Origin: Thermomicrobiales bacterium
GTDB lineage: Bacteria; Chloroflexota; Chloroflexia; Thermomicrobiales; UBA6265
Reading direction: 5' to 3'
Length of the DNA: 64,000 bases
Assembly (NCBI GenBank): GCA_020853615.1
Contig: JADYYO010000342.1
Coordinates: 3,172 to 67,171, forward strand
In this document: piece after piece, positions 20,209 through 43,979 of the stretch
Position numbering within the stretch: the stretch's first letter is position 1
Layout of the letters: each line of letters opens with the position of its first letter
Translations under genes and position numbers: made by a program
The notes under the pieces: model-generated
What the model was told of the DNA's origin: nothing
Seen by the model: the letters and a program-made list of their open reading frames with translations, nothing else
The model's database searches: none

Positions 20209-20892
20209 CTACGGGTTGACGACGAGATCGGGGTTGTTCTCGAGGAAGGTCTCGCGGCGCTTCTGGAGCTGGCGCAGCTCCTTCGGATCGCCGGGATCCC
20301 ACTGGTTGCACTCGTAGACCAGGGTCTCGGTGAGATCGGTCTCGCAGCCGGGCTGGCGCATGCACGTGCGGACGATCTGGCGCGGCGCCTTGACGGGCTT
20401 GCCATCGGGCAGCGGGACGACCTGGTTGCCCTCGCAGACCATGCACGGCACCCATCGCGGCGCCGGCTCGTCGATGACGTGGTGGTGCGCGCCCGCGTGA
20501 TTCGCCACCAGCCGGCACGGGATCTCGCGGTGGATGCCCTGGCTCGGGCGGTAGCCGCACGCCGCGTCGTCCGACGGGGCAAGATCGGGCGTCGCCATGA
20601 CCTGGCCGCGCCCCGCGCAGTTCGGGCACGGCGCCATGTCGCGCAACCCGTGGACCGGGTCGAAGGTCTGCGCCGGGTTGCCGATGTCCAGGTGGACCTT
20701 GAGCTCGCCGTAGTAGCGACACGGGCCCCGCAGGCAGATGAACGTCTGCGGCGTCGCCTCGGGCAGCGGCGCCGGCGCGCCCACGGTCCCGGCCGCGATG
20801 CCGCCGTCGGGCGCGATCGGCGGGAGCGGGGCGCTGTCGATGTTGGCGTAGACGTCGATCGGGCTCTTGTGGCGCGGGGGGAGAGTCGGCAC
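20209..20892 (-). CDS. Cys-rich protein, first gene of late operon
   Basis: GTG at 20892 (VPTLPPRHKSPIDVY...). Several CxxC-type pairs (CPNCAGRG, CMVCEG). The upstream part of tracked ORF 20209-21231 is low-GC3 noncoding. Confidence 0.6.
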   Translation of the reverse strand: MPTLPPRHKSPIDVYANIDSAPLPPIAPDGGIAAGTVGAPAPLPEATPQTFICLRGPCRYYGELKVHLDIGNPAQTFDPVHGLRDMAPCPNCAGRGQVMATPDLAPSDDAACGYRPSQGIHREIPCRLVANHAGAHHHVIDEPAPRWVPCMVCEGNQVVPLPDGKPVKAPRQIVRTCMRQPGCETDLTETLVYECNQWDPGDPKELRQLQKRRETFLENNPDLVVNP

Positions 20893-21464
20893 GGGTGGTG
20901 ACACTACGCGATCCACCGGGCGGGTTCTAGCGCCGTTCGTGCGGCGTTTTCGCGAGCCCCGATCGCGCACGGGCGCAGCTTTCGATCGCCACCAGGCCGA
21001 GACCGTTGTGGCGTTTGGGTGCCGCTCGAGCGCGCGGGCAACGCCAAACCGCCGCGCAACTGCGCTCGGGGCCCGGTTTGGCGTTAGCGGATCCTGTTGC
21101 CAAAACGCGGATCGCGGTGCCGTTCCGGAGCGATCGATGGCGCGCAAGCGCGATCTGCGGCCTGGTACCGCGGTGGCCCCGGTCCCGCGCTGGACCGGGC
21201 GCCGGATGGCCCCGGTGCGATGCGATGCCACACCAGCCTACAGTGTAGGTGTTGCGGCCCGCAACATGGTTAAAATCCCCCGCCAACCTGTCAGGTTCCC
21301 GGACACTTTCCGGTGGATTTTCACCACGTGCCCGGTCAAGTACCCGGAAACACTGCGCCTAGAACCCGGCATGCCGGATGCTTTGACCGGGAATGCGGCC
21401 GGAATCCTCCGGCGCCCCCGGCTGGACAACCGGGGCCCGTCAACCCTCACCGACAGGATACCCG
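20893..21464. promoter_or_regulatory. 572-bp divergent control region between late (-) and early (+) operons
   Basis: Lowest-GC stretch. TTTGGCG/CGCCAAA inverted repeats (21010-21108). Palindromes CCTACAgTGTAGG (21237-21249) and GTTGCGgccCGCAAC (21251-21265). TAAAAT box at 21271-21276. CCGGA-N4/5-TCCGG palindromes at 21299-21313 and 21399-21412. Confidence 0.6.
20901..20906 (-). promoter_or_regulatory. -10-like TAGTGT, 8 nt upstream of GTG 20892 (leaderless late-operon promoter candidate)
   Basis: Minus strand reads gatcgcgTAGTGTcaccacccGTG. Confidence 0.35.
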
Positions 21465-22160
21465 ATGCTGGCGACCGAAAGCCGCGCCCATGGCGCGGTG
21501 GTACAGTGCCCGTCCTGCGCCTGGACGGGGCCGCGCACCGCGCGGGGCCCCATCCCAGCGCACAAGGTGATTCGGCTGGCGGGCCCGGGCGATCGACTCG
21601 CCTCCCGCCACCGCGGGGCCGCTCCCGTGGGACCCCGTCCCGCGTGCGCGGGCCCCATGTCCGACCGGCAGATCGCCCGGGCCATCGCCCGGACGTTCGC
21701 TGCGGTGCGCATGCCGGACCTTGCGCGACTCTCGACCACGCTTCCCCCCGATCTCTGGGCTACCAGCGCGCTGTACCGCGCGCTGGCCCCGATGCCGTGG
21801 GCCCGCTACGTGGTGCGCGTGCTGGCGCCGCTGGACCACGACGGTTCGCGCCGGACCGTGGTGCAAGCGTTCCACGTCCGGGCCCATGCGGAAGCGTGGG
21901 CCCACGCGTGCGCGCTGGCGCTGGGCCCCGCGGGGACCAGCGCGCGCACCGCGGGCTACGTGACCGTGGGTGCGCTGGACACCCGCCCCAAGCGGTGGGC
22001 CACCATGGCGAGCTACTACGGGCGGGATCTGGGGCTCGAGTCCCCGGTCACGTACACCGCGATCGATCCGGGTGGCGTGGTGTTCCGGTACACGGATCCC
22101 GCGCACTACCCCGGCCATGGCGACGCACCGTCGCGTGACGCGTGGGATCGGATCTGGTGA
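21465..22160 (+). CDS. hypothetical early protein
   Basis: ATG 21465 (MLATESRAHGAVVQCPSCAW); alternative start 21657 (MSDRQIARAIAR); the C-terminal 160 aa clearly look like protein. Confidence 0.55.
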   Translation: MLATESRAHGAVVQCPSCAWTGPRTARGPIPAHKVIRLAGPGDRLASRHRGAAPVGPRPACAGPMSDRQIARAIARTFAAVRMPDLARLSTTLPPDLWATSALYRALAPMPWARYVVRVLAPLDHDGSRRTVVQAFHVRAHAEAWAHACALALGPAGTSARTAGYVTVGALDTRPKRWATMASYYGRDLGLESPVTYTAIDPGGVVFRYTDPAHYPGHGDAPSRDAWDRIW

Positions 22161-22444
22161 TGCTGGCCCCGGCCGCATACACCGTCGCGTCCGACGCGTA
22201 CGCCCGGGGCCGCTCCGGGAAGTCTCGCGACCCGCTCCCGGGCGAACGTCCGGACGCCCCGCTCCCGGCCACGGATCCGTGGCTCGCGGGTCACTTGGAT
22301 CGGTGGCTGGAGCGTTGCGCGCCGCATGGCGCGGACGTCGCCGAGCTACGGGCCCGGATCCTCGGGTACTACGCGACCGATCCCGAGGATGCCCACCGGA
22401 GCGATTACCCGACGATCCTCCGCCGGACCGGGGGCGCGCGATGA
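22160..22444 (+). CDS. hypothetical small protein
   Basis: MLAPAAYTVASDAYARG...; TGATG junction with the upstream gene. Confidence 0.55.
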   Translation: MLAPAAYTVASDAYARGRSGKSRDPLPGERPDAPLPATDPWLAGHLDRWLERCAPHGADVAELRARILGYYATDPEDAHRSDYPTILRRTGGAR

Positions 22445-22677
22445 TGCCGTGCGCGGTCATGGTGCGCCTCCCGGGCGGCCGGCGCATCCTGGACAGCTAC
22501 CGGCCCGGACGTCCGTACTACCCCGGCCCGGGCGCCGCATGGCGCCGGGCGATCGTGATCGCGCGCGCCACGCGTGGCGTGGTGGTCACGGTCGAGACCT
22601 GCAATGGCGCGCGCCTCGCATCGATCACCCGCGCCACCGACGGCGCGATCACGATCGACACCCGGAGAACCCCATGA
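22441..22677 (+). CDS. hypothetical small protein
   Basis: ATGA overlap; MMPCAVMVRLPGGRRILDSYRPG... Confidence 0.55.
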   Translation: MMPCAVMVRLPGGRRILDSYRPGRPYYPGPGAAWRRAIVIARATRGVVVTVETCNGARLASITRATDGAITIDTRRTP

Positions 22678-23012
22678 AGATCCAAGCGTACACGAGCGGT
22701 GGCCGGTCGGAGATCGCCGCGGGCGGGTTTGATGGCCCGTGGCGGTTCGATCGGTACCACCCGGCGCCCCCGGCCGACGGGTGCCGGACGTGCGCGCGCA
22801 TCGCCCCGGCCCAGTGCAGCGACCACCGGCCCGTCATGGAGCGGTGCATGATCCTCGGGCCGGGCGATCTCAGTCTCCGGTGCGTCGGGTACAGCGGCAA
22901 CGGGCCGGCCCGGCCCGAGGATCCCGCGTGGCGCGCGTACGATCCGCGCTGCGGAAGCTGCTACCTCGGGACGCCACACACGATCGCGCGCCACGATCAC
23001 GAGACCGCGTGA
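22674..23012 (+). CDS. Cys-rich small protein
   Basis: ATGA overlap; MKIQAYTSGGRSEIAAGG...CRTCARIAP...CGSCYLG. Confidence 0.6.
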   Translation: MKIQAYTSGGRSEIAAGGFDGPWRFDRYHPAPPADGCRTCARIAPAQCSDHRPVMERCMILGPGDLSLRCVGYSGNGPARPEDPAWRAYDPRCGSCYLGTPHTIARHDHETA

Positions 23013-23091
23013 TCCGGTCGCGGGGTCCGGGCCATCGCCCGGGCCGCCTCCCGACGCTGCGAACCCTTCCCCTTCCCTCTGGAGCATCACC
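23013..23091 (+). repeat. intergenic repeat element copy A (hairpin + conserved 21-mer + SD)
   Basis: CCGGTCGCGGGG, hairpin CCGGGCcatcGCCCGG (23027-23042), core GCCTCCCGACGCTGCGAACCC (23046-23066), CT-rich tract, GGAG. Confidence 0.8.
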
Positions 23092-23460
23092 ATGATCACG
23101 TTCGATCTGTACTGGACCGAATCCGCGCGCGCCTGGCACGCGGTCATGCCCGGCGCGTGCGGAAGCGGCGCCACGCCGTGGGAAGCGCTGGCGGAAGCGT
23201 TGACCGTCTGGGATCGCCGCGGACGCCCGGAGGCCGATCCCGCGGACGTCCGGCGCGGCGGCGCGGACTGGGTGATCGATCACGTGGTCGACCGCGGCCC
23301 CGGTCACTTCTACCGCTACCACGTGCGCGGCGTGAACCTGAACCAGCGGCCCGGCGGGTACGCCCGGATCATCGACTGGGACGTTCCGAGCATCGCCGAC
23401 CCGCGTTACGAGATCCTCCCGGGCGCGTGGGGTTCCGCTTGCTGGAAGTGTGCCGCGTGA
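23092..23460 (+). CDS. hypothetical protein (122 aa)
   Basis: Full ORF MITFDLYWTESARAWHAV..., GGAG RBS. Confidence 0.7.
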   Translation: MITFDLYWTESARAWHAVMPGACGSGATPWEALAEALTVWDRRGRPEADPADVRRGGADWVIDHVVDRGPGHFYRYHVRGVNLNQRPGGYARIIDWDVPSIADPRYEILPGAWGSACWKCAA

Positions 23461-23669
23461 GCGATCCCGCGATCTACCTATCGACGTCGGATGGGCGCTG
23501 GCGCGTGATCCACCACGGCGCGCAACTGTGTGCTGATACCGATCTGGCCGGTGCGCGACGGGTCGCCGAAAAGTACCGTCTCGATCTCTCTGGAGTTCCC
23601 GTGTGGAATGGCGATCTCGGAATCTGGGAGGATCGGCCCGGCGCCCACCGTGGCGGGGGTGGGCGGTGA
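23457..23669 (+). CDS. hypothetical small protein
   Basis: GTGA overlap; VSDPAIYLSTSDGRWRVIHHGAQLCAD... Confidence 0.55.
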   Translation: MSDPAIYLSTSDGRWRVIHHGAQLCADTDLAGARRVAEKYRLDLSGVPVWNGDLGIWEDRPGAHRGGGGR

Positions 23670-24034
23670 GCATCGCGATCGGGATCCGCTGGCACGTCTA
23701 CCAGGTGCGAGACGGCGCGGCCGATAAGCACGTGGGGACCGTGGTGGCCATGGACGCGGACGGCGCGCGCCGCAAGGCGTTCCTGCGGTTCGGCTCGGGC
23801 CGTACTGCGCCGGTCGGCGACCGGCCCGGCCGCGGGTTCGCGATCGGGTTCACCCTGCGGTGCGAGCGCTGGTGCGAGGTGCGGCCCGGCGCCCACCGTA
23901 CCGCGGCGGAATGCGCGCCGACGCTGCTACCGGATCGCACGTGCGCCGTGTGCGGCGTCGCGCACGCGAACCCGTGCCCGACCTGCGGCGCCGGCGGGTT
24001 CCACGCCGACGGATGCCCGGAGATCGACGCGTAG
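23666..24034 (+). CDS. Cys-rich small protein
   Basis: GTGA overlap; VSIAIGIRWHVYQVRDG...CAVCGVAHANPCPTCGAGGFHADGC. Confidence 0.6.
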   Translation: MSIAIGIRWHVYQVRDGAADKHVGTVVAMDADGARRKAFLRFGSGRTAPVGDRPGRGFAIGFTLRCERWCEVRPGAHRTAAECAPTLLPDRTCAVCGVAHANPCPTCGAGGFHADGCPEIDA

Positions 24035-24127
24035 CCCGGTCGCGGGGCCGGTAGACGGTCCGGGGCCCAGTGCCCCGGCGCGCCTCCCGACGCTGCGAAC
24101 CCCTTCCCTTGCCCGAGGATCAGCACC
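24035..24127 (+). repeat. intergenic repeat element copy B
   Basis: CCGGTCGCGGGG, hairpin CCGGGGCccagtGCCCCGG (24060-24078), identical core GCCTCCCGACGCTGCGAACCC (24082-24102), GAGGA. Confidence 0.8.
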
Positions 24128-24799
24128 ATGCGCCAGCGCTACGCGATCACCTACGTCTCGGATCGGTCCGGGCTGCGAACCCTGCGGTTCGCGAACCAGG
24201 GCCACAACCACTATGACGATCCGAAGCATGCCGCGGCCTGGCTGCGGGCCGCGCTCAAAAACTCGCCGACCGGGCTCGGCTCGGATCGCGAAAAGATCTC
24301 GCTCGCGGTGTCCCCGGTCGAGTGTTACGACCACGGCGACGCCACGGGCGTCTACGTCGACGCCGTGCTGATGACCCTGCCGGATTGCCTCTGGCTGGAT
24401 CTGGCGTCGATCCCCGACAGCCTCGCCGGGCGCGGTTTCTGGGACGAGATCAAGCGGTACTGGCCGACGCCGACCCGGCCCCAGTTGGCCACCGCGCGCC
24501 GCGTGTGCGCGCAGCTGGCGGCGCTGGCCCGGCCGTACGCCATGATCCAAGTCGCGGAGTGCAACGGGATCCCCGAGGCGGCCCGGCCCGCCCTGGCCGA
24601 GAGCGCGCGCAAGATCGAGGATCAGGCGCGCGCGCTGATCGCGGAGCTCCCGCCGCTCACCAGCGGCAAGCGCGCGGGCGTCAAGTTCACCGGCGACCCG
24701 CGCGGGTTCACGCTGCGGGTGGTGATCCCCGACGCGCCCCACGACGGCAACACGTGGGGCCGCGATGGGGAGTTTGGGATCGATCCCGGCTACGTGTGA
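24128..24799 (+). CDS. hypothetical protein (223 aa)
   Basis: Full ORF MRQRYAITYVSDRSGLRTLRFANQGHNHYDDPKH...; normal composition. Confidence 0.75.
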   Translation: MRQRYAITYVSDRSGLRTLRFANQGHNHYDDPKHAAAWLRAALKNSPTGLGSDREKISLAVSPVECYDHGDATGVYVDAVLMTLPDCLWLDLASIPDSLAGRGFWDEIKRYWPTPTRPQLATARRVCAQLAALARPYAMIQVAECNGIPEAARPALAESARKIEDQARALIAELPPLTSGKRAGVKFTGDPRGFTLRVVIPDAPHDGNTWGRDGEFGIDPGYV

Positions 24800-24810
24800 C
24801 GGCGCCGACG

Positions 24811-24835
24811 GATGGCCCGGGATGGCCCGGGCCAT
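24811..24835 (+). repeat. 10-bp perfect tandem repeat GATGGCCCGG x2 overlapping 14-bp palindrome ATGGCCCGGGCCAT
   Basis: Read directly at 24811-24835 in the gap between the 24128-24799 and 24873-25040 genes. Confidence 0.8.
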
Positions 24836-24872
24836 GCTTCGGAATCGTTCACCTCACCTTGAAAGGATCACC

Positions 24873-25040
24873 ATGCGACTCCGCCAGTACGTTCGGGACA
24901 ACCGCGATCACCTGACCGCCTACGTGCGCCAGGCGCTCGGCCGGCCCACCGTCAAGCTCACCACGTCCGATCTGGAAGACTGGATCCGGAACGATGAATC
25001 CCTGTATCTGGCGGCAAAGCGGGCGGGGGCGAACCCGTGA
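24873..25040 (+). CDS. hypothetical small protein (55 aa)
   Basis: AAGGA RBS; MRLRQYVRDNRDHLTAYVRQALGRPTVKL... Confidence 0.55.
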   Translation: MRLRQYVRDNRDHLTAYVRQALGRPTVKLTTSDLEDWIRNDESLYLAAKRAGANP

Positions 25041-25834
25041 TGCCCCCTTCCGTGACCGACCTTCCGGCCCGGCTCGAGCCTGCGGTTCGCGCGGTGATCG
25101 CCGCGCGCGATGCCGGCGAGCCTGGGATCCTGATGATCCGGAGCCCCGGGCTCGGGGCGAGCATGCTCGCGAGCCGGATCCCGACCATGATCGATCTCAC
25201 CGAGCACCAGCGGCGCTGGATCGCCGTCGAGCATGACGCGTCGACGTGGACGTGGGAGAGCAAGAGCCCCGCGCCGACCGGCGCGCCGTTCCAGGCGCCG
25301 CACTACACGATCAGCGCGCCCGCCATGGCCGCGCGCCCGCACCGGGCGCACGACGTGCGGTGTCTGAACCCGACCACGCCGCGGTGTCTCTGCGGGCTCG
25401 CGTCCGATCGCAGCGCCGGCGGGCACGTCGTGACGAAAGCGAGCGTGTGCGAGTTGGCGCGGTTTGGCGTCCTCTTGCTGGACGAGATCGAGGAATTCCA
25501 GCGGTCGACTCTCGAGGCCGCGCGCGAGCGGCTCACCCGGATGGGGCCCACCGCGCCGTTCGTCGTCGCGGCGGCGCGGCCCTGCCCGTGCGGATACGGC
25601 GCGCCGGAACCCGCGGGCTCGGCGTACTGGCGCGATTGCCAGTGCAGCGCCGACGCGATCGCGCGCCACGTCGCGCGCGTCCAGCGGCACGCCGGCATCC
25701 TGCGGCTGGTCCGGTCCGTGGTCCTGCCGACCAACGGGATCGCCAGCCGGCCCACCGAACCGGCCGGCGGCGGGCCCCGGTGCCCCGACCTGGCGACGAT
25801 CCGCGCCGCGATGGCGGCGGAGCGCGCGGCGTGA
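25037..25834 (+). CDS. ComM/YifB (Mg-chelatase-type) AAA+ -like protein, degenerate Walker A
   Basis: IRSPGLGASMLASRIP (vs GPPGSGKTMLA), APHYTIS (PHHTxS), FGVLLLDEIEEFQRSTLEAARERL, AARPCPCGY (NPCPCGY). Confidence 0.7.
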   Translation: MMPPSVTDLPARLEPAVRAVIAARDAGEPGILMIRSPGLGASMLASRIPTMIDLTEHQRRWIAVEHDASTWTWESKSPAPTGAPFQAPHYTISAPAMAARPHRAHDVRCLNPTTPRCLCGLASDRSAGGHVVTKASVCELARFGVLLLDEIEEFQRSTLEAARERLTRMGPTAPFVVAAARPCPCGYGAPEPAGSAYWRDCQCSADAIARHVARVQRHAGILRLVRSVVLPTNGIASRPTEPAGGGPRCPDLATIRAAMAAERAA

Positions 25835-26061
25835 CCCGCCGGGACCACTGTCCGGACTGCGGCGCCGCATACGCGGCGCTCCGGGTCGGCCTGACGTTCG
25901 CGGACGTGCGCCGGGAACTTCGGGCCGAGCCGGAACGCCGACGCGTCACCCGCCACACCGTCCTGGGCCGGCTGCACGAGCACAAGATGAACCTCTGGCG
26001 CTACTGGCACGGGCCGGGGCGCTGCGTTGCCGACACCCACCACGCCCGCGAGGCCGCATGA
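25831..26061 (+). CDS. small zinc-ribbon-like protein
   Basis: GTGA overlap; VTRRDHCPDCGAAYAALRVG... Confidence 0.55.
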   Translation: MTRRDHCPDCGAAYAALRVGLTFADVRRELRAEPERRRVTRHTVLGRLHEHKMNLWRYWHGPGRCVADTHHAREAA

Positions 26062-26606
26062 CCACCGCGACCATGACCGAACCGATCACCCCCACCCTGC
26101 CGCTCCGGAAGCTCCGCGAGATCCTCGTGAGCCTCCCGGTCGATCAGCGCTGCGATCCGCTCTGCCCGGGCTGGATCGTGTCCGAGGGCAACGGCGGGTT
26201 GCGCGTCGAGCGCTGCGACGACTGCGACGGCGAGCGGCGCGCGCTGGGGATGCCCCAGATCTACGATGAGGACGTGCGCCGGTTGCCCGAGGCGCGCCGC
26301 GAGCGGCTCCGCGTCCTGGCCGGCAAGCCGCTCCGCGTCCTAGGCGTCACGTGCGCGGCGATGCACTGGACCGACGGCACCGCCAGCCAGTGGCGGGTCT
26401 ACCGGGTGCCCGTCCGCGGCTACCCGCGCCCGATCAAGGCGCTGGATCTCAACAAGGGCACCGTCATCGCCACGCCGACGATGCGCGGCGACTACACCGC
26501 CAACCAGCGCGGCCTCGCCGCGCAGTACGCCACCCAGGAATGGCCCGCGTTCGCGTGGCCGTCCGCCGACGACGAGATCGCCACCCTCGACAGGAGCAAC
26601 GCATGA
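26058..26606 (+). CDS. hypothetical protein (182 aa)
   Basis: ATGA overlap; MTTATMTEPITPTLPLRKLREILV...CDPLCPGW...CDDCDG. Confidence 0.65.
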   Translation: MTTATMTEPITPTLPLRKLREILVSLPVDQRCDPLCPGWIVSEGNGGLRVERCDDCDGERRALGMPQIYDEDVRRLPEARRERLRVLAGKPLRVLGVTCAAMHWTDGTASQWRVYRVPVRGYPRPIKALDLNKGTVIATPTMRGDYTANQRGLAAQYATQEWPAFAWPSADDEIATLDRSNA

Positions 26607-27133
26607 GCCACGCCAAGCCTTCCCGCCCCGCCCCGCCGTTCTCGGCCGCCGTCCTGGCCTCCGCCCGCGACTACGTGCCGGCGCTGATCGAGGCGTGCGG
26701 CAACCTCAACCCGATTGAGGTGCTGCTCGAGACCGCGCACTACCAGGCGGTTCTCGATCGCCTCGACATGGCCGAGTTCGTCGTGGGGTGGTTCCACGGC
26801 GTCGCCGAGGCGGCCGGCGGCGACAACGTCCGCGAGACCTATCTGCGGCTGCTCGAGGCCACGCGCCCGACCGCGCCCGCGAAGCGCACGGCGCCCGCGA
26901 AGCCCAAGGCCAAGGCCCCCGCGCCGGGGAAGCGCCAGCGCGTGGCCGTGGTGCCGCCGGCCGAGCTCGCGCCCCCCGCGGCGCCGCCCGCGCCCGCGCC
27001 CGCGCTGCCGCCGCCCCCGGCCAGCAAGCGCCAGGTGATGGCGGCGATCTACGAACCGCCGACCGTCACGCCGGCCGCCAGCCCCCGCGGCCGGCGCCAG
27101 CGGGGCACCAACCAGGCGAGCCTCGCGCTCTAG
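26603..27133 (+). CDS. hypothetical protein with Pro/Ala/Lys-rich C-terminus
   Basis: ATGA overlap; MSHAKPSRPAPPFSAAVLASARDYVPALIEACG... Confidence 0.6.
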   Translation: MSHAKPSRPAPPFSAAVLASARDYVPALIEACGNLNPIEVLLETAHYQAVLDRLDMAEFVVGWFHGVAEAAGGDNVRETYLRLLEATRPTAPAKRTAPAKPKAKAPAPGKRQRVAVVPPAELAPPAAPPAPAPALPPPPASKRQVMAAIYEPPTVTPAASPRGRRQRGTNQASLAL

Positions 27134-27142
27134 GGGGCCGCC

Positions 27143-27304
27143 ATGCTGATCTGTCCCCGCTGCAAGACGCCCGTGCGGGCCTGTCACCGCCGCGATCCCG
27201 GATGCACCCATTGCGATGGGTGCGGCTGGTGCGGCACCACCGCGAAGGAAGCGCCCATGCCGAACAAAGCGATCAAGGATGTCGCGCCCGGGGTCGCGCC
27301 GTGA
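27143..27304 (+). CDS. 53-aa zinc-ribbon protein (below ORF-track cutoff)
   Basis: MLICPRCKTPVRACHRRDPGCTHCDGCGWCG...; stop overlaps the next GTG (GTGA). Confidence 0.5.
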   Translation: MLICPRCKTPVRACHRRDPGCTHCDGCGWCGTTAKEAPMPNKAIKDVAPGVAP

Positions 27305-27696
27305 CCCGCGCGCTGGACGTGCTGCCGGAGGCGGCGCGCCGAGCGATGGCCTTGCGCGCGTCGATGGAGTTGCTCGGCGTCGATCTCGAGCGTGTGATCC
27401 TGGCGCTCTCGAGCAGCGAGACGCCCGACCACGCGCGGATCGTCGTCGCCTACTGCGCCACCGAGGGGGATCTCACGAGCGCGCGCTACGTCGCGGTCTG
27501 CGGGGACGTGCCGGTGACGTGGTCGATCGACGAGATCCCGCGCGCCTGGAACGCGCTCACCCAACCCCAGCGCGGGCTCGAGCGGCAACGGTGGGTGTCG
27601 CCCGACGCGCTGACGCTGCTCGTGCTCGATCTCCACCGCGCCGGCGTGCCGATGCCGCGGCTCCCGCCCGGGCTGACGCCCCCACCCCCGAACTAG
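27301..27696 (+). CDS. hypothetical protein (131 aa)
   Basis: VTRALDVLPEAARRAMALRASMELLGVDLERV...; followed by hairpin CCCGGCccggcGCCGGG (27705-27721). Confidence 0.6.
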   Translation: MTRALDVLPEAARRAMALRASMELLGVDLERVILALSSSETPDHARIVVAYCATEGDLTSARYVAVCGDVPVTWSIDEIPRAWNALTQPQRGLERQRWVSPDALTLLVLDLHRAGVPMPRLPPGLTPPPPN

Positions 27697-27777
27697 CGGC
27701 GAAACCCGGCCCGGCGCCGGGTCGCGCGGACCACGCCCCACCGCGCCTGATGAGCCAGGGCACCCCAGGAGACCACC

Positions 27778-28365
27778 ATGATCGTGATCCACCCCGACCA
27801 CAGCCTGACCGACCTGCAAGGCACGCTGCACCGCTGCGCCACCCGGCGCGTGGCCGAGCTCGCCGCCGCGACCAGCGCGCTCCGCGCGGCCGGCTGGACG
27901 GTGCGCGGCCCCGACACGCGCGCCGGCTGGCGCCGCCCGCTGCTGCTCGCGGGCGAGCGGTGCGGTGAGCCGCTGGACGGCGCGCGGAGCGACGAGCGCT
28001 GCCAGGGGCTGGTGATCTTCCGTGGCGGCGGCGTCGACGCGACGTCGCCCGACGCGCTCGTGATCGACGCCTGCGCGGGCCTGCCGCTCGCGGTGATCGA
28101 GGATCGTGGCGTCACGACGGCCGCCCGCGCGATCGTCGCGCTCTACCTCGGGCCGCTGCCCGGCGAGCCCATCCTGTACACCACGCACGGAGACGTTCGC
28201 GGCCCCTGTGGCCACGCTCACAAGTCGATCGAGGCCGCGGTGCGGTGCTTGCGCTCCGATCTGCGCACGAATTCGGACCGCAATGTAATGCGGCTGATCA
28301 ACGGGGGGCGTCAGCCGCTCACGCTCGACGAGGCTCGACTGGTGGATCACTTGGTGGAGGCGTAG
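27778..28365 (+). CDS. hypothetical protein (195 aa)
   Basis: AGGAGA RBS; MIVIHPDHSLTDLQGTLHRC... Confidence 0.75.
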   Translation: MIVIHPDHSLTDLQGTLHRCATRRVAELAAATSALRAAGWTVRGPDTRAGWRRPLLLAGERCGEPLDGARSDERCQGLVIFRGGGVDATSPDALVIDACAGLPLAVIEDRGVTTAARAIVALYLGPLPGEPILYTTHGDVRGPCGHAHKSIEAAVRCLRSDLRTNSDRNVMRLINGGRQPLTLDEARLVDHLVEA

Positions 28366-28368
28366 CCC

Positions 28369-29037
28369 GTGCCCAAGCCTATTCGCCCGCCGGTCTTTTC
28401 ACGCCGCTCGCCGCTCGCGCCCGGGCGCGTCCAGAACGCGGCGGCCCGCTGGTCCGACGCCATGCGCTACCCGCGCGAGCTCACCGACGACGCCGCGACC
28501 GGCGCCGCCGACGCGTACGCCGCCGAGCACGCCGCGCCCGTCATGCCGACGCGCGAGGCGTTCGTGGCGGCGGCCGGCCGCGCGCGCCTTGCGATCGCCG
28601 CGCTGGCGCTGGTGGCGGGCTGCGCTGGCCCCGCGCCCGAGCCCGGCCCGGACGGCGGCGCCGACGCCGGCGCCGACGCCGCGGACGGCGGCGCGTGCGC
28701 CGATCAGTGCCTGCCGCCCGACGCCGGCGACGCCGGCGCGGGCCTGCCGATCAACGCGGCGTGCGAGCCGACGCTCGACGAGTGCGCGCCCGGCCTGACG
28801 TGCCGGATCGCGTCCGCGCACGTCGGCACGTGCCGGCCGATCGGCACGCTCGCGGCCGGCGCGATCTGCACGGCGAGCGATCAGTGCGGCGCCGCCCAGG
28901 CGTGCCTGCCGGCGGAGGCACCCAACCGGCTGCGCTGCCAGGTCGTCTGCGCGATCGCGCGCCCGCTCGAGCGCTGCCAGGCCGGCGAGACCTGCGCCCC
29001 CCAGTGGGGTGCGGACACCGGCGTCTGCATCCCCTGA
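28369..29037 (+). CDS. Cys-rich lipoprotein
   Basis: Lipobox LALVAGC then a D/G/A linker and a 12-Cys domain (CADQC, CEPTLDEC, CTASDQC). Start is GTG 28369, or more likely ATG 28543. Confidence 0.7.
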   Translation: MPKPIRPPVFSRRSPLAPGRVQNAAARWSDAMRYPRELTDDAATGAADAYAAEHAAPVMPTREAFVAAAGRARLAIAALALVAGCAGPAPEPGPDGGADAGADAADGGACADQCLPPDAGDAGAGLPINAACEPTLDECAPGLTCRIASAHVGTCRPIGTLAAGAICTASDQCGAAQACLPAEAPNRLRCQVVCAIARPLERCQAGETCAPQWGADTGVCIP

Positions 29038-29052: not shown

Positions 29053-29853
29053 ATGGAGATCCAACACTTCCCATACGCCCACCTGCGCGTCGCCGCGTGC
29101 AACCCGCGCGTCCAGATCGATCCCGCCGAGCTGCGCCAGCTGGCGCTGCACGTCGCGCGCGACGGCCTCTTGACGCCGCTCCGGGTGACGCCCGGCGGCG
29201 ACATCCTGGCCGGCCAGCGGCGCTGGCGCGCGATCGGGCTCGTGATCGCGTGGCGCGAGCATTTGGTCGACGGCGAGGATGGCGCGCAGCCCGACGAGCA
29301 TGCGCTGTTCGACATGCGGGCCCAAGCGCTGATCGGCGCGGTGCCGTGCGTCGTCGACGACGCCGGCGCCGCCCAGGCGCCGGTCCGCGCGCTCGCCGAG
29401 AACCTGCACCACGAGCCGATGAGCAGCTACGACACGGCCATGGCCTACGCCGCGCTGGCGGGCCCCGTCAACGAGCCGCGCCGGACGATGACCGAGCTTG
29501 CCCGCGAGACCGGGCGCAGCAAGAGCACCGTCTCGCGCATGCTGACCGCGTGGCGTCAGGCCGGCCCCGAGCTCCACGCCGCGTGGCAGGCGGGCCTGGC
29601 GTTCGAGCGCGTGCTCGCGCTGGCGGCGCTGCCGCTCGAGGCGCAGCGCGACGCGCTCGCTGGCGGTCACAAGAGTCACGGCCGGCCTGGGATCGAGGCC
29701 ACCAAGGCGGTGCTGCGCGAACTGCGCGAGACGCATGGCGACAGCCACCCGTACTCTGACGGCGCGATCGCCGCGCTGCGGTTCGTCGCCGGCGAGTTGC
29801 CGATGGACCAGTTCATCTCGACCATCAAGGCGGAAGTCGACGTCTCGCCATGA
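29053..29853 (+). CDS. ParB/Srx-fold N-terminal domain + HTH protein (ParB-like)
   Basis: LLTPLRVTPGGDILAGQRRWRA (GxRRxxA box), ENLHHEPMSSYDTA, HTH MTELARETGRSKSTVSRML; AGGAG RBS. Confidence 0.75.
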   Translation: MEIQHFPYAHLRVAACNPRVQIDPAELRQLALHVARDGLLTPLRVTPGGDILAGQRRWRAIGLVIAWREHLVDGEDGAQPDEHALFDMRAQALIGAVPCVVDDAGAAQAPVRALAENLHHEPMSSYDTAMAYAALAGPVNEPRRTMTELARETGRSKSTVSRMLTAWRQAGPELHAAWQAGLAFERVLALAALPLEAQRDALAGGHKSHGRPGIEATKAVLRELRETHGDSHPYSDGAIAALRFVAGELPMDQFISTIKAEVDVSP

Positions 29854-39319: not shown

Positions 39320-39937
39320 ATGGCGCTCGACCTCGGCTTCCGGAAGCCCGTCCCCGACAACGTCTTTGCCGAGGTGATGAGCGGGTGGGGCCGGCCGCGC
39401 GCCGGCGGCAAGGAGCACTCGGGGCTCGACATCCTCCTGCCGATCGGCAAGCCGGTCGTGGCGATGGCGGACGGGCAGGTGATCCGCGTCCAGGCCACCG
39501 ACGACGGCGGCTCGGCCGGCATCTTCCTCGTGATCCGCCACCCGTCGGGGATCTCGAGCCGCTACATCCACCTGGGCCGGGCCGACGTGCGGCTCAACCA
39601 GCAGGTCGCCAAGGGCCAGGTGATCGGCGCGTCGGGCAACACCGCGATCAAGAACAGCCCGCCGCACATGCACGTCGACATCAAGGTGCCGGCGGCGCTC
39701 TTGCCGCAGATCGAGGCGGCCGCCGGCAAGCCGCCGGGCGGGTGGCACCCGCTGGTCAACCCCTGGGGCTACGGCGTGCCGGCCGAGCCGTGGATCCCGG
39801 TCGACCGCTACTCGGCCCGGACGCTCGAGGACGCGCAGCGCAACGGGATCCCGCTCTACCGGGGCGGGGCCGCGAAGGCGGTCGGGCTCGCCGCGCTGCT
39901 GCTCTTGGGCTGGGGGCTCTACCGCCTGACGCGCTAG
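39320..39937 (+). CDS. M23/LytM metallopeptidase with C-terminal TM anchor
   Basis: HSGLDILLPIGKPVVAMADGQV, RYIHLGRADVRLNQQVAKGQVIGASGNT, PPHMHVDI; ends AVGLAALLLLGWGLYRLTR. Confidence 0.8.
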   Translation: MALDLGFRKPVPDNVFAEVMSGWGRPRAGGKEHSGLDILLPIGKPVVAMADGQVIRVQATDDGGSAGIFLVIRHPSGISSRYIHLGRADVRLNQQVAKGQVIGASGNTAIKNSPPHMHVDIKVPAALLPQIEAAAGKPPGGWHPLVNPWGYGVPAEPWIPVDRYSARTLEDAQRNGIPLYRGGAAKAVGLAALLLLGWGLYRLTR

Positions 39938-40200
39938 ATGCGCTCGCGGATCTGCTGCGGCTGGGCCGGCCCGTCGATGCGGGGTTGCGCCGGGGCCAAC
40001 GGGAAGTCGCGCAGGGCCTCGGCGCGCGCCGCGTCGTTCATGCGGAGGAGCTCGTCGTTGTGCGCCTTGCACAACCGCGGCTCGAGGCCCTCGGCAAAGA
40101 CGCCCAGGGCGATGTCGTAGAGGACGGTGTACTCGGCCGGGCTCGCGCACCGGCAGCACGTGGCCGGCGCGGGTGGTTCGACAACGTCGGTGTTCGGCAT
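39934..40200 (-). CDS. hypothetical small protein (88 aa)
   Basis: Full ORF MPNTDVVEPPAPATCCRCASPAEYTVLYDIALGVF...; convergent overlap with the M23 gene stop. Confidence 0.65.
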   Translation of the reverse strand: MPNTDVVEPPAPATCCRCASPAEYTVLYDIALGVFAEGLEPRLCKAHNDELLRMNDAARAEALRDFPLAPAQPRIDGPAQPQQIRERI

Positions 40201-40206
40201 CCGACG

Positions 40207-40216
40207 ATGGTAGCAT
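40207..40216. promoter_or_regulatory. overlapping divergent -10 boxes in a 23-bp intergenic gap
   Basis: Plus strand TAGCAT (40211-40216) + 7 nt + ATG 40224. Minus strand TACCAT (40212-40207) + 6 nt + ATG 40200. Confidence 0.45.
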
Positions 40217-40223
40217 CGGCCCC

Positions 40224-40571
40224 ATGTACGCGTGGCCCGACGATGCCCCCCGGATCAGCCCCACCCCCGCGCTCGAGGCGCACTACCGCGCGGCGATCGC
40301 CGCGTCGGTCGCGTGGCTCGAGGCCAACGCCGCGCCGGCGCCGACGTGGAGCGGCGGCCACCACGCCAGCCCGGCGGATCCCGCCGCGCAGGCGCACCAC
40401 GCCGCGATCGTGGCGGCGATCGCGGCGCAGCCCGGGCCGACGCCGCAGGGCCTCGCGCTCCGGACGATCGTCACCGTCGCGGCGCGCTGCGCGTTCGTCG
40501 CGCGCGCCGGCGGCTTTGGCGAGGCGGGCTGGGCCAAGGTGCGGGCGACCTTCCAGAGCCCGCGGTCGTAG
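40224..40571 (+). CDS. hypothetical Ala-rich protein (115 aa)
   Basis: MYAWPDDAPRISPTPALEAHYRAAIAASVAWLEAN... Confidence 0.6.
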   Translation: MYAWPDDAPRISPTPALEAHYRAAIAASVAWLEANAAPAPTWSGGHHASPADPAAQAHHAAIVAAIAAQPGPTPQGLALRTIVTVAARCAFVARAGGFGEAGWAKVRATFQSPRS

Positions 40572-40573
40572 CC

Positions 40574-41188
40574 GTGCCGATCCGCGGCCAGCGCGTCGTG
40601 ATCGTCGGGGACAGCCTGTCGGCCGGGCCGCACACGCCCGGCCAGGTGCTGGCCGATCGGCTCGCCGCCGCCGGCGCCGACGTTCGCGTGAACGCGCGCG
40701 TCGGGCGCAGCGCCAACAACTTCTACGGCCGCGAGGACTGGCGGGGCCAGCTGCAGCAGATCGCGGCGACGCACCCCGACGTCGCGATCGTCGTGCTCGG
40801 CACCAACGACATCGGCCTGTCGATGACCGTCGACGCCCAGCGCATGACGCAGCTCCGCGACGCGCTCGCCGGCGCCGGCGCCGACGTCTACGCGTTCGGG
40901 CCGCCGACGTTCCCGCCCGGCACCCGGCTGGTCGCCGGCCAGCCCCAGGTCGTGCGGATGATGCGCGACGTGTTCGGCGGTGATCGCTTCATCGACCTGA
41001 CGCCGCTGACCGCCGACCTGGTGACGAGCCAGCACCGGACCGGAGACCAGGTTCACTTCACCGCCGCCGGCGGCGACGTCGCCGGGCAGCGCATGGCCGA
41101 CGCGTTCCTGCGGGCCTCGAGCGCGCCGGGCGGCGGCTGGCCGGTCGCGGTCGCGCTGCTCGTGGCCGGCTGGTTCCTGCTGCGGTAG
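40574..41188 (+). CDS. SGNH/GDSL hydrolase (esterase) with C-terminal TM anchor
   Basis: GTG start; VVIVGDSLSAG (block I), VLGTNDIG (block III), GDQVHFT (block V DxxH); ends GGWPVAVALLVAGWFLLR. Confidence 0.75.
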   Translation: MPIRGQRVVIVGDSLSAGPHTPGQVLADRLAAAGADVRVNARVGRSANNFYGREDWRGQLQQIAATHPDVAIVVLGTNDIGLSMTVDAQRMTQLRDALAGAGADVYAFGPPTFPPGTRLVAGQPQVVRMMRDVFGGDRFIDLTPLTADLVTSQHRTGDQVHFTAAGGDVAGQRMADAFLRASSAPGGGWPVAVALLVAGWFLLR

Positions 41189-42118
41189 CTACGGCTGGAG
41201 GCCGTAGGCGTAGTTCATCGGGATGCGCTGCTCGATCCCGTCGAACCAGACGTGGGCGCGGCCCGGGATCCGGACCTGCTTGCCCCAGCCCTTGGTGCCG
41301 GTGAAGACGTCGAAGTGCGCGCCGAAGATGCCGCCGCCGGTGTCGTTCACGGTCACCCAGCCGTCGTGGACGTCGCCGCCCGGCAGGCGGAGCCCGACGA
41401 GCTCGAGCACCCAGACCCGGGTGCCGGCCGGCACGACGCCGCCCAGGCTCGCGTAGCGATCGTCGTGCCGCGGCAGCCGGCCGTTGTCGGCGGCGACCGT
41501 GCGGAACGGCCGGCACTCGATCCCCTTGGCGCAGATCGGCCAGCCGCCGGGCCCGGGCCGCTTCACCGCGAACGTGCGGACCTGCGTCACCTGCTGGCCG
41601 CTGACCCGCAGCCCGGCGTACCCCGGCTTGTTGGGCAGCCAGCCGTTGCGCTGCGCCAGCGCCAGCACCGGCTTGTAGAGCGGGGCGTCGGCGCCGGCGT
41701 CGCGCCAGCCGCTCACGTTGATCAGCCGCCCGTCCGCGAGGATGCTCGAGCCCTCGAGCGAGGCCTCGACGAACGCGTGGGCGTTGACCGGCGCGAGCAC
41801 GTGCCCGTCGGCGCCGTAGAGCGGCACCTGGCCCGGGCCCCACGGCTGGACCATGCCCACGTGGTAGTAGGTCAACTGCCAGCGGCGCATCGACTGGATC
41901 TGCGCCGGCGCGCTGCGCTGCAGGGCCTGCGCGATCGGCGCGAGGACGTGGTCCGTCTTGGCGCCGAACCACCCGTCGGCCTCGCCGCACGCCGGGTAGT
42001 CGCGCTGGAAGCGCCGCAGGTCGTCGCGCCAGTTCTCGCCCTCGTAGTCGCCGTCCACCTCGCCGTCGTAGTAGCCCAGCTTCTGGAGTGCGGCCTGTGC
42101 CTCGGGGATGCTCAGCAT
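41189..42118 (-). CDS. peptidoglycan-binding domain + 3D (MltA/RlpA-like) domain muralytic protein
   Basis: LQKLGYYDGEVDGDYEGENWRDDLRRFQ...ADGWFGAKT; C-terminal VNDTGGGIFGAHFDVFTG. Confidence 0.75.
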   Translation of the reverse strand: MLSIPEAQAALQKLGYYDGEVDGDYEGENWRDDLRRFQRDYPACGEADGWFGAKTDHVLAPIAQALQRSAPAQIQSMRRWQLTYYHVGMVQPWGPGQVPLYGADGHVLAPVNAHAFVEASLEGSSILADGRLINVSGWRDAGADAPLYKPVLALAQRNGWLPNKPGYAGLRVSGQQVTQVRTFAVKRPGPGGWPICAKGIECRPFRTVAADNGRLPRHDDRYASLGGVVPAGTRVWVLELVGLRLPGGDVHDGWVTVNDTGGGIFGAHFDVFTGTKGWGKQVRIPGRAHVWFDGIEQRIPMNYAYGLQP

Positions 42119-42149
42119 GGCCGCGAGCGTACCCCGGGCCGGCCCGGCG

Positions 42150-42554
42150 TCACCAGTCGAACGGGAACGCGCCCTCGGCGTTGCCGTGGCGCTCGCGACC
42201 GCCGGCGGCGACGTAGCGCTCGACGTCGGCCGCCAGGTGCGCGGGCACGTCCGCCGGCGCGGCGCCTTGGCCGAGCTGGTAGGCCCAGACCCGCACCGCG
42301 CGCTCGTGCGCCGCGATCGCCGCCGGCGTCGGCGGGATCCACGGGATGCGCGACGCGGGCGCTGACGACCACCGCGGAAGCGCCAGTGGCACCGGCGGGG
42401 GAGGCTCGGGCCGGCGGGTCAGGGCGACGTACGCGGCGGCGCCGGCAAAGCCGCCCACGACCGCGGTGGCGATCGGGTGGCGGCGAAAGAAGCCGCCTAC
42501 GGCCCGGGCGACGTCGGGATCGTTCAAGAGCCCGAGCAACCCCGGCCCGCTCAT
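42150..42554 (-). CDS. membrane protein (134 aa)
   Basis: Start MSGPGLLGLLNDPDVARAV (ATGA overlap at 42551-42554); helix HPIATAVVGGFAGAAAYVAL. Confidence 0.6.
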   Translation of the reverse strand: MSGPGLLGLLNDPDVARAVGGFFRRHPIATAVVGGFAGAAAYVALTRRPEPPPPVPLALPRWSSAPASRIPWIPPTPAAIAAHERAVRVWAYQLGQGAAPADVPAHLAADVERYVAAGGRERHGNAEGAFPFDW

Positions 42555-42853
42555 CGCCGCTGGGCCGCCGCGGCCTGCGCGTTGGTGATGCGCGTGCTCC
42601 GCGCCTGCTGCTCGAGCGGCTCGATCCGGCGCGAGATCTCGGTCAGGAGCCGGATGTACGCGGGGATGTGCCCGACGTTCTTGTAGATCGAGCGCTCGGT
42701 CTTGCCGTTGCGGGTCCACTCGCGGAACACCGCGAACGAGTGCTTGCCGTCGACGGCGCGTTCGGTGATCACGCCCACCAGGCCATCGGGGTCGCGGATC
42801 TCGGCCACCACGATGAACGCGGGCGAGGGATCGTCGGGGAGAGCGTCGGGCAT
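42551..42853 (-). CDS. hypothetical protein (100 aa)
   Basis: Full ORF MPDALPDDPSPAFIVVAEIRDPDGLVGVITERAVDGKHSF... Confidence 0.7.
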   Translation of the reverse strand: MPDALPDDPSPAFIVVAEIRDPDGLVGVITERAVDGKHSFAVFREWTRNGKTERSIYKNVGHIPAYIRLLTEISRRIEPLEQQARSTRITNAQAAAAQRR

Positions 42854-42859
42854 GGTGGG

Positions 42860-43048
42860 CTACATCACCTTGTAGTGCGTCCAGTCGCCGTGGTTGCGCG
42901 GCTTGACCGAGAAGTTGTCGCCGCGCTTGAGCTTGCGCTTGCGCGGCATCTCCAGGTAGGCGCGCTTGGCGCCGTCCAGCGAGCGGGCGTTCACGGTGCT
43001 CATGCGGCCGTCGGGGCCGCGCACCAGGTACATCTCGACGGCCGACAT
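42860..43048 (-). CDS. small basic protein (62 aa)
   Basis: MSAVEMYLVRGPDGRMSTVNARSLDGAKRAYLEMPRKRKLKRGDNF...; first gene of a 3-gene minus-strand operon. Confidence 0.65.
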   Translation of the reverse strand: MSAVEMYLVRGPDGRMSTVNARSLDGAKRAYLEMPRKRKLKRGDNFSVKPRNHGDWTHYKVM

Positions 43049-43120
43049 CGGGCCATCATCCTACCACCACGTGGCGATTGCTGTCAGGTCGCACCTCGGG
43101 CCCGGGTACGATGCGCCCGC
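43049..43120. promoter_or_regulatory. 72-bp divergent promoter region (candidate genetic switch)
   Basis: Minus strand CTGACA-N18-TAGGAT (43063-43058) + 9 nt + ATG 43048. Plus strand TACGAT (43107-43112) + 8 nt + ATG 43121. Palindromes CCACGTGG (43067-43074) and CGGGCCCG. Confidence 0.45.
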
Positions 43121-43324
43121 ATGCTGTCTCCCTCCGCCAAGGCCTTCCGGCTCCAGCTCATCGCCGCCGCCCACTGCAAGGGCCTCGCGAGCGGCGTCCA
43201 CCTGTGGGTCGCCGACGACATCCCCGGCGGGGTGATCTGCGCCGGCTGCGTCGAGCGGCGCGCGCGGGCCGACGTGATCGCCAGCCCCAGCGACGACGAG
43301 CCGCTCGAGGCGACCGCGCCCTAG
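43121..43324 (+). CDS. small protein (67 aa) with CxxC
   Basis: MLSPSAKAFRLQLIAAAHCKGLASGVHLWVADDIPGGVICAGCVERR...; only the tail of tracked 690-aa ORF 41252-43324 is genuine. Confidence 0.6.
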   Translation: MLSPSAKAFRLQLIAAAHCKGLASGVHLWVADDIPGGVICAGCVERRARADVIASPSDDEPLEATAP

Positions 43325-43860: not shown

Positions 43861-43979
43861 CGTGGCGTCCTTCGGTTGAGAGTCCAGTTTCGGTCACGCG
43901 GGCGTTCCTCGAGCTCGGCCAGCGCGACGGTTCCACAGGTCATCCACACCCTGTGGACAACCGCGATCATCACGTTCAT
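43857..43979 (-). CDS. 40-aa ORF coupled by ATGA overlaps on both sides (excisionase/RDF-sized)
   Basis: MNVMIAVVHRVWMTCGTVALAELEERPRDRNWTLNRRTPR; its ATG overlaps the int stop and its stop overlaps the next ATG. Confidence 0.4.
   Translation of the reverse strand: MNVMIAVVHRVWMTCGTVALAELEERPRDRNWTLNRRTPR

Follow-up and report, generated by a model that had tools for sequence, protein, structure and literature searches.

What might a member of a helicase family be retained for once its motor has been dismantled? The question is raised by a gene in a 64,000-nucleotide stretch of DNA, here called the window, from a Thermomicrobiales bacterium (assembly GCA_020853615.1, contig JADYYO010000342.1). 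The gene is an open reading frame (ORF) on the forward strand that runs from a GTG at position 25037 to a stop codon ending at 25834 and encodes a short ComM/YifB-like AAA+ protein, which we refer to as mini-ComM. We propose that mini-ComM may be a motor-dead descendant of the ComM/YifB branch-migration helicase that has been cut down to the AAA+ alpha/beta core and the zinc finger. With regard to its function, we tentatively favor the reading that it acts early and binds DNA, and possibly also a partner, in a manner that depends on zinc but not on hydrolysis, and that it would serve as a core factor in establishment, replication or recombination.

The ATG at 25040 is more likely to be the start codon than the GTG at 25037, because it shares one base with the upstream stop codon (TGATG) and agrees with the start annotated in near-identical contigs. 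The coding sequence then spans 25040–25834 on the forward strand and specifies 264 amino acids, which are numbered below from this ATG. The GC content at third codon positions (GC3) is 0.92, as expected for a genuine coding frame in DNA with a GC content of 72%. The closest relative is 95% identical and differs by 13 non-synonymous and 9 synonymous changes, which corresponds to a ratio of non-synonymous to synonymous substitution rates (dN/dS) of 0.52, and the amino-acid changes are mostly located in surface loops between residues 66 and 120. The dN/dS values of the neighboring genes range from 0.10 to 0.59, with 0.10–0.12 for the upstream genes. Since the ORFs are intact throughout and dN/dS is 0.52, the gene appears to be maintained and functional.

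The placement of the protein in the ComM/Mg-chelatase family by the initial annotation was borne out by both sequence and fold, and neither a profile search nor a structure model indicated a different family. The Pfam profile PF01078 (Mg_chelatase) matches mini-ComM with an E-value of 1.3e-17 and 64.3 bits, compared to a cut-off of 20.3, and the top sequence match in the Protein Data Bank is ComM from Legionella (8rxd, E-value 2.8e-9). A model produced with AlphaFold2 (AF2) from a 55-sequence alignment has a predicted local distance difference test score (pLDDT) of 88.7 and a predicted template modeling score (pTM) of 0.86, and the predicted order of its secondary structure elements, from beta1 through the P-loop and the following helix to beta5, is that of a five-stranded alpha/beta AAA+ core. 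A Foldseek search with the model returned ComM first (8rxt/8rxd; template modeling score on the query, TMq, of 0.52–0.57), followed by archaeal LonB and MCM subunits, with a probability of 1.00. Among predicted viral structures none was close to the model (best E-value 3.4e-4), no PHROG profile matched at E<=1, and none of the PADLOC families for anti-phage defense and counter-defense, BrxL included, matched at E<=0.01.

Mini-ComM is thus homologous to ComM/YifB, yet it fails most of the features that define this family. It scores 42 bits against TIGR00368, the equivalog model for YifB/ComM, which is below the cut-off of 362.4, and 31.7 bits against NF007365, below the cut-off of 530. No match to PF13541 (Lon-like, ChlI) or PF13335 (Mg_chelatase_C) was obtained in a Pfam scan, and the protein begins only at about residue 185–200 of ComM, with the alignment starting at about residue 200, in agreement with the absence of the Lon-like N-terminal domain noted initially. 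Annotation as ComM or as a helicase would therefore be unsuitable and should not be applied, and the name “ATP-binding protein,” which was given by NCBI to a member of the 90% identity cluster, is probably wrong for the mini-ComM in the window.

ComM from L. pneumophila (8RXD/8RXT) and V. cholerae and YifB from E. coli are hexameric branch-migration helicases that consist of a Lon-like N-terminal domain, an AAA+ domain and Mg_chelatase_C. The roles of individual ComM residues were taken from the L. pneumophila study (PMC11612176) and mapped onto mini-ComM via sequence alignments, which show that more parts of the motor have been lost than was first described. As reported initially, RSPGLGASML at residues 34–43 stands in place of GxPGSGKTML in ComM; the P-loop (SPGLGASM, 25142–25165) has kept its glycines, but the Walker A lysine, K224 in ComM, is replaced by Ala40 and the adjacent threonine by Ser41. 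The sensor-1 position (25577–25579) holds Arg180, whereas an asparagine is found in all 25 full-length ComM/YifB proteins that we compared (N346 in L. pneumophila ComM by count from the ComM alignment, motif AAMNPCPCG). At 25535–25558 (TRMGPTAP), 12 residues are gone relative to ComM 320–340, a deletion that spans the Ps1-beta hairpin (324–336) including the DNA-contacting R328; in the AF2 model, a helix at residues 155–171 is predicted to pass directly into a strand at 174–179 with no hairpin in between. The deletion is reflected in the spacing between Walker B and the CPCG motif, which is 32 residues in mini-ComM and 44 in the full-length proteins. The H2i pore loop of ComM (281–289; GGGxxPxPGE) has given way to some 30 inserted amino acids (25334–25450) between the positions of ComM residues 280 and 282, among which H104, C108, C116 and C118 form the pattern H-x3-C-x7-C-x-C, a putative second zinc knuckle and likely second metal site. 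Finally, the protein, which is about half the size of ComM, ends with a helix (25790–25828), which is what is left of the lid (Mg_chelatase_C) and corresponds to its first helix in ComM.

With the remainder of the lid, the trans-acting arginine finger R463 (PMC11612176) has gone, as has the interface to DprA, which recruits ComM via a surface in the C-terminal domain (PMC12012524), and the Lon domain is missing together with its DNA contacts. What has been kept are the Walker B motif VLLLDE (residues 144–149; 25469–25486), as pointed out in the initial annotation, the sensor-3 arginine (R162) and an arginine (R222) at the position of R381; in ComM, the sensor-3 residue R316 and R381 act across subunit interfaces (PMC11612176). 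For a ring translocase to work, it must have pore loops, domains that form the ring and a nucleotide site to which the neighboring subunit contributes in trans, all of which are missing or unconstrained in mini-ComM. Because the Lon ring, the Ps1 hairpin, the arginine-finger lid, the Walker A lysine and the sensor-1 asparagine have been lost, mini-ComM should not be able to act as such a translocase, and ATP-driven branch migration is effectively excluded as judged from the sequence.

Other elements of ComM are retained. In addition to the PF01078 core and the first lid helix, mini-ComM shares with ComM/YifB the PFRAPHHTxS motif, here PFQAPHYTIS (25286–25315), the GE..LA..GVL.LDE..EF region that surrounds Walker B, and the PCPCG…CxC zinc motif. 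The latter, which the initial annotation had recognized as CPCGY, reads PCPCGY at residues 181–186 with C200 and C202 (CQC) and would correspond to an embedded C4 zinc finger (25583–25645; C182, C184, C200 and C202) inherited from ComM, with R198 located inside it. It is followed by a helix (25649–25699) in which R209 and R213 align with R369 and K373 of the second DNA-contact patch in ComM, so that two of the three basic residues of the R366/R369/K373 patch are kept.

Mini-ComM appears to be one member of a large and undescribed clade of short ComM-like proteins. A single-sequence search with mini-ComM identified only eight relatives. With a profile of short proteins, about 40 proteins of 200–350 amino acids with PF01078 alone were recovered that scored well above full-length ComM/YifB, and an exhaustive profile search of 1.84 billion representatives yielded many more short relatives, ranked above proteins of 470–530 amino acids. 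The clade was analyzed by comparing 85 short sequences (190–300 amino acids) with 25 full-length ComM/YifB proteins, and in a neighbor-joining tree the 85 short sequences were monophyletic, with mini-ComM inside. The members are diverged, with about 33% identity between them, and 34 columns are invariant among eight proteins at 33–52% identity. The signature of this clade, which we refer to as the ARFG clade, includes LARFGVLxLD, with Walker B lying inside LARFGVLxLDE, HxRxWxxxE, M168 and P173, the further residues W60, E64, R141 and F142, the deletion of the Ps1-beta hairpin with a spacing of 31–33 residues from Walker B to CPCG, the lack of a Lon domain and a lid, and a length of 200–300 amino acids. 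All of these features are present in mini-ComM. Taken together, the sequences suggest that the clade is old and did not arise when a host gene was captured recently.

The ATP site is relaxed throughout the clade. The GK[ST] motif is present in all 25 full-length proteins and in 39 of the 85 short ones, with at least about 18 state changes on the neighbor-joining tree. The aspartate and glutamate of Walker B, invariant in the full-length proteins, are found in 92% and 79% of the short proteins, respectively, and the corresponding values, again compared to 100%, are 24% for the sensor-1 asparagine, 32% for a basic sensor-3 residue (arginine in the full-length proteins) and 24% for a basic residue at the position equivalent to R381. 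The N-terminal GQ/R/H motifs, of which GQ contacts the adenine, have been lost, and PGxG of the P-loop is conserved in 85–91%. By contrast, the four cysteines of the zinc finger are conserved in 94–98% of the clade, R213 in 87%, R198 in 75%, PFRAPH in 89–99% despite the relaxed ATP site, and LARFGVLxLD in 92–100%. An insertion of at least 20 amino acids at the H2i position is found in 64 of the 85 members, and 51 of these 64 insertions contain at least two cysteines and at least four cysteines and histidines in total, with H-x3-C-xn-C-x-C, C-x-C-x6-H-x2-H and C-x-C-x8-C-x2-H as recurring patterns, whereas the H2i loop has 6–8 amino acids and no cysteine in every full-length protein. Because the insertion occurs in members both with and without an intact Walker A motif, the dead Walker A of mini-ComM may be regarded as one sign that selection on the ATP site has been lifted across the whole clade. 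It seems to be the face of the protein with the zinc elements that is under selection instead.

Reduced ComM-like proteins of larger size were also identified. Proteins of 311–442 amino acids in which the Ps1-beta hairpin is deleted and no room is left for a full lid are encoded on seven IMG/VR contigs (L092–L094, L097, L101, L103 and L107) and on contigs L010 and L011; most of these keep GKT, and the Lon-like N-terminal domain was detected by Pfam only in the proteins on L010 and L011, the former with genes for Mom and PAPS reductase as neighbors. More broadly, the viral reduced forms (350–440 amino acids; IMG/VR and P0036/P0039 types) resemble mini-ComM in the deletion of the Ps1-beta hairpin (29–33 residues from Walker B to CPCG), the loss of the lid and the phage-like context, with Mom, PAPS reductase and phiTE_072 as neighbors, and differ from it by having kept the Lon-like domain and GKT and by lacking the ARFG signature. 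The forms of 400–440 amino acids, on phage-like contigs and in IMG/VR, in which the hairpin and the lid have already gone but the Lon-like domain is kept, look like intermediates of the same reduction. Since such forms are located on phage-like contigs and in IMG/VR, the whole series of reductions could be viral.

Members of the ARFG clade itself were not found in the IMG/VR scan, which returned only the other reduced forms, nor among deposited phages, where a megablast search with 12 kb gave no match and tblastn searches with mini-ComM and with a clade member with intact GKT recovered only full-length comM at about 30% identity. One such match, in MT835528.1 (L009), is a full-length bacterial-type comM gene of 510 amino acids directly followed by a dprA-like gene, and this record, although deposited as phage, probably represents bacterial DNA or the flank of a prophage. 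Matches at similar identity were also seen in sibling records of “Bacteriophage sp.” from human feces. In a scan of metagenomes with the back-translated LARFGVLxLD motif, 9 of 120 matches were real, and a scan of genome contigs with a motif common to all ComMs was dominated by host comM. The only hints about hosts are the labels of metagenome-assembled genomes, namely Thermomicrobiales, Kofleriaceae and Acidimicrobiales. A search of a library of papers revealed no description of truncated or phage ComM-like proteins.

Unlike comM and yifB, the gene for mini-ComM is located in an operon of a phage-like element. It is part of a run of six genes (24873–27304), five of which overlap (by 1, 4, 4 and 4 nucleotides), with the sixth following after a gap of 9 nucleotides. 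An upstream ORF of 55 amino acids (24873–25040) ends one nucleotide into the mini-ComM start, and three genes for proteins of 76, 182 and 176 amino acids follow on the same strand (25831–27133). The 4-nucleotide overlaps between stop and start codons suggest that mini-ComM is translationally coupled with these three genes. The 76- and 182-amino-acid proteins are both rich in cysteine (CPDC…C and CxxxC…CDDC, respectively), and a family scan of four genes of the run, which left out the ORFs of 55 and 53 amino acids, gave no match.

The rightward genes face a leftward array across a divergent intergenic region (21232–21392) with a dip in GC content to 0.60, the only dip (21250–21399) within the profiled interval of 20500–28449, and this region presumably contains the promoter of the mini-ComM operon. 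A search for promoters and terminators gave nothing informative. The initial annotation placed the gene in an early operon, which is plausible: mini-ComM is encoded 3.6 kb into a tight same-strand array that starts at the divergent region and precedes the ParB-like, holin and lysis genes, an arrangement from which early expression may be presumed. Searches with tblastn and clustering showed that mini-ComM is the only rightward gene common to all related loci, followed by a gene for a ParB_N and helix-turn-helix (HTH) protein (29053–29853, forward strand), present at five loci and with no ParA partner seen, and that six leftward gene families are shared. In every long-contig locus with the divergent layout, mini-ComM is positioned a few genes downstream of the divergent region, facing the conserved leftward array. 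Genes in the same operon in the relatives encode PAPS reductase as well as ArdA, RadC, large DNA methylases, Mom, a beta-clamp, a UvrD-type helicase and ParB-like proteins, and these latter seven are neighbors typical of early or establishment regions.

A comparison with contig L133 (1–2261, aligned to 25040–26900 of the window) sheds light on the exchange of the gene. The two sequences are 97–100% identical at the nucleotide level from about 26019 to 26900, the proteins of 182 and 176 amino acids being 98–99% identical, and 82–90% identical over the gene for 76 amino acids, but only about 60–65% identical (51% at the amino-acid level) across the mini-ComM gene and unalignable upstream of it. 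There is thus a mosaic junction at the 3′ end of the mini-ComM gene, and diverged alleles of mini-ComM therefore seem to have been swapped between otherwise near-identical backbones.

The element in the window has the appearance of a temperate phage, since its genes include those for a holin, an SLT lysozyme, further cell-wall proteins (an M23 peptidase, a GDSL lipase and a peptidoglycan (PG)-binding/3D protein) and a tyrosine integrase, although most of the ORFs scanned match no family. In Pfam and PHROG scans of about 40 ORFs, only these proteins, the ParB_N/HTH protein and a weak glycosyltransferase were matched, and no replication gene was recognized. A conjugative element was considered because of ArdA, RadC, ParB and SLT and set aside, as the locus has a cassette with holin and lysis genes and no family of type IV secretion system (T4SS) ATPases was matched by the scanned ORFs.

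How could such a protein work? We hypothesize that selection has kept the DNA-channel face of ComM, that is, the PFRAPHHT strand, the GE..LARFGVL strand, the C4 zinc finger and the basic helix, and that this face in most clade members has gained a Cys/His-rich insertion where the H2i pore loop once was. The protein would then act stoichiometrically, by zinc-dependent DNA binding that is independent of hydrolysis, possibly together with a protein partner, early in infection and within the establishment, replication or recombination program of uncultured high-GC temperate phage-like elements. We suggest DNA binding because the conserved parts flank or form the DNA-facing elements of ComM and are joined by a likely second metal site, and we infer that they form one contiguous surface. 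The initial annotation had offered a nucleotide-independent DNA-binding factor as one of two possible roles; with the zinc finger, R198, R213, PFRAPHHT and GE..LARFGVL all conserved, this role provides a better fit than the other, the poisoning of the host hexamer, with DNA binding itself as its predicted part.

Several observations weigh against this proposal. About half of the clade keeps GK[ST] and DE, and mini-ComM itself keeps Ser41, DE, R162 and R222, which leaves room for some nucleotide binding or switching. The Walker A mutant of ComM does not bind DNA, so that nucleotide-free DNA binding would be a new property (PMC11612176). Furthermore, the AF2 confidence in the His/Cys insertion is low (62–79), no partner gene is conserved clade-wide, a search for an origin or iterons near mini-ComM revealed no iterons or origin-like repeats, and the dN/dS value of 0.52 is based on just 22 substitutions.

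We also considered the possibility that mini-ComM is a protein-protein adaptor with no direct role in nucleic-acid binding, which recruits or sequesters a host or phage factor, such as the replication machinery, the ParB-like protein or the coupled small cysteine-rich proteins. Zinc knuckles often mediate protein contacts, and the translational coupling to four small genes and the ParB_N+HTH gene as the only other recurrent rightward gene would both be in line with such a role, as would the mosaic junction at the 3′ end, which together with the unrelated upstream genes in L133 suggests co-variation at the level of modules. However, no neighbor is conserved across the whole clade and the conserved basic residues map to the DNA-contact patch of ComM, and we therefore think it unlikely that mini-ComM is only an adaptor.

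The second role offered in the initial annotation was that of a dominant-negative poison or cap. The protein would dock on host ComM/YifB or another clade-7 AAA+ protein (BrxL-like) and block the assembly of hexamers, thereby suppressing branch migration or transformation-type recombination that damages or cures the element. There is a precedent in BchD/ChlD, a degenerate AAA+ paralog from the same Pfam family that pairs with the active BchI ring. The alpha/beta core that forms the ring interfaces is retained, mini-ComM itself has both R162 and R222, and the clustering of changes relative to the closest relative in the surface loops 66–120 could also be read in this way. It is known that comM can be inactivated when mobile elements insert into it, AbaR islands being reported to disrupt the gene (PMC11441513), and prophage contig ends carry fragments of comM/yifB. 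Contigs of the Acinetobacter phage MD-2021a (CAKLQH020000037.1, CAKLQF020000032.1 and related ones) have such fragments at their ends, consistent with the integration of prophages into comM.

Our results nevertheless lent no support to poisoning, which we regard as improbable. The trans-acting residues are unconstrained across the clade, the protein lacks the arginine finger of the lid, the Lon ring and the domain that binds DprA, and ComM hexamers assemble only with ATP and DNA (PMC11612176). Moreover, the clade is seemingly ancient and monophyletic with a signature of its own and has not tracked host ComM sequences, and mini-ComM behaves as a core gene of a phage group rather than as a variable accessory gene for counter-defense. 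It is located in a coupled operon of lytic type rather than next to the integrase or within a lysogeny module, and the lack of a PADLOC match, including to BrxL, points in the same direction. Sequestration of DprA was ruled out, the DprA interface being located in the missing C-terminal domain.

Yet another possibility, with a still lower probability in our view, is a nucleotide-binding switch in which binding of ATP and Mg or slow hydrolysis gates the binding of DNA or a partner, as in the initiator and loader AAA+ proteins. The P-loop glycines, Ser41, the Walker B DE, R162 and R222 would allow this, in which case the protein would not be truly dead, and the clade-wide frequencies of PGxG and of the Walker B aspartate and glutamate are high; many of the proteins outside of the 39 with GK[ST] have G-R-T, and in the 90% cluster A40 is followed by Ser or Thr, whereby the hydroxyl group is kept. 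On the other hand, the replacement of the Walker A lysine by alanine normally abolishes productive nucleotide binding in AAA+ proteins, and a Walker A mutation in ComM also abolishes DNA binding and helicase activity (PMC11612176). Sensor 1, the adenine-contacting GQ motif and the lid have also been lost, and the site has decayed further in the nearest relatives P0002 (GAH/DQ) and P0003 (GGG/SE), which suggests that it is not under selection in this sub-branch. Lastly, that the gene is a decaying, functionless remnant is very improbable, for although several catalytic motifs have been lost and its dN/dS exceeds that of the upstream genes, ORFs of similar size are intact and full-length in 85 of 85 sequences and at every related locus, 34 columns are invariant among the eight diverged proteins, the AF2 fold is confident and the translational coupling is conserved.

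Returning to the DNA-binding reading, a more far-reaching version of it, which we consider doubtful, is that a lineage of viruses has turned a hexameric helicase into a small zinc-dependent module for the binding of DNA or junctions, in which the AAA+ core would serve as a mere scaffold and the pore loop would have become a zinc knuckle. Such a core early phage factor might, for example, recognize or cap branched or incoming DNA, or cap ComM-type rings of the host. If so, the repeated and independent losses of the ATP site would be evidence of a function that is fully uncoupled from nucleotide hydrolysis.

Degenerate AAA+ paralogs are already familiar, and what may be new here is the family-level picture and the replacement of a pore loop by a zinc knuckle. 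The N-terminal AAA+ domain of BchD/ChlD in Mg-chelatase is a non-hydrolyzing paralog that works by binding; however, BchD is large, contains an integrin-I domain, pairs with BchI, lacks a zinc finger and is not viral, and no partner ring was identified for mini-ComM. The delta-prime subunit of the clamp loader (HolB) likewise combines an AAA+ fold and a non-functional P-loop with a zinc module and acts as a static “stator” in DNA metabolism, but it belongs to another AAA+ clade, still has a lid and a collar domain and is one subunit of a defined pentamer. MCM and archaeal LonB, the next-best structural matches, belong to the same H2-insert/PS1-hairpin AAA+ clade as mini-ComM but are only 12–17% identical to it and are full motors with intact pore loops.

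If confirmed, mini-ComM would illustrate clearly how an AAA+ motor has turned into a pseudo-ATPase in nature. The graded series, from full-length proteins through forms without the lid and hairpin and forms without the Lon domain to those without Walker A, in which the lysine was lost repeatedly, lends itself to the question of which helicase parts remain valuable after the loss of the motor. For phage biology, it marks what seems to be a conserved and unannotated core early gene. The phage-like elements with this gene are uncultured, have a high GC content and form a large group, and most of their scanned ORFs match no family. Should mini-ComM be found to target host ComM/YifB or recombination intermediates, the conflict known to exist between mobile elements and natural transformation would be extended by a mechanism that operates at the level of proteins.

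Some further features of the element were noted. The leftward array (1–21231, reverse strand) contains about 20 genes, including ORFs of 438–641 amino acids, with no Pfam match at E<=0.01 and two marginal PHROG matches (E-values of 5e-4 and 2e-3), and the homolog of 17071–17673 in L005, L006 and L008 is a Transglut_core protein. The leftward genes are presumably the virion genes of an undescribed phage group. A cluster of genes for cell-wall enzymes at 39320–44845 consists of the M23 peptidase (39320–39937), the GDSL lipase (40232–41188) and the PG_binding+3D protein (41189–42118, reverse strand), followed by the tyrosine integrase (43976–44845, reverse strand), and may mark the end of a prophage. 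The GC content reaches 0.85 at 26950–27099, inside the gene for 176 amino acids (26603–27133), which corresponds to a low-complexity stretch rich in proline and alanine. Between 22058 and 23225, where no gene was called under the GC3 filter and small ORFs were called in relatives, there are imperfect direct-repeat pairs (D2–D5) with a spacing of about 410–530 nucleotides as well as two perfect inverted repeats of 15–16 nucleotides, at 22550/22643 and 22850/22908.

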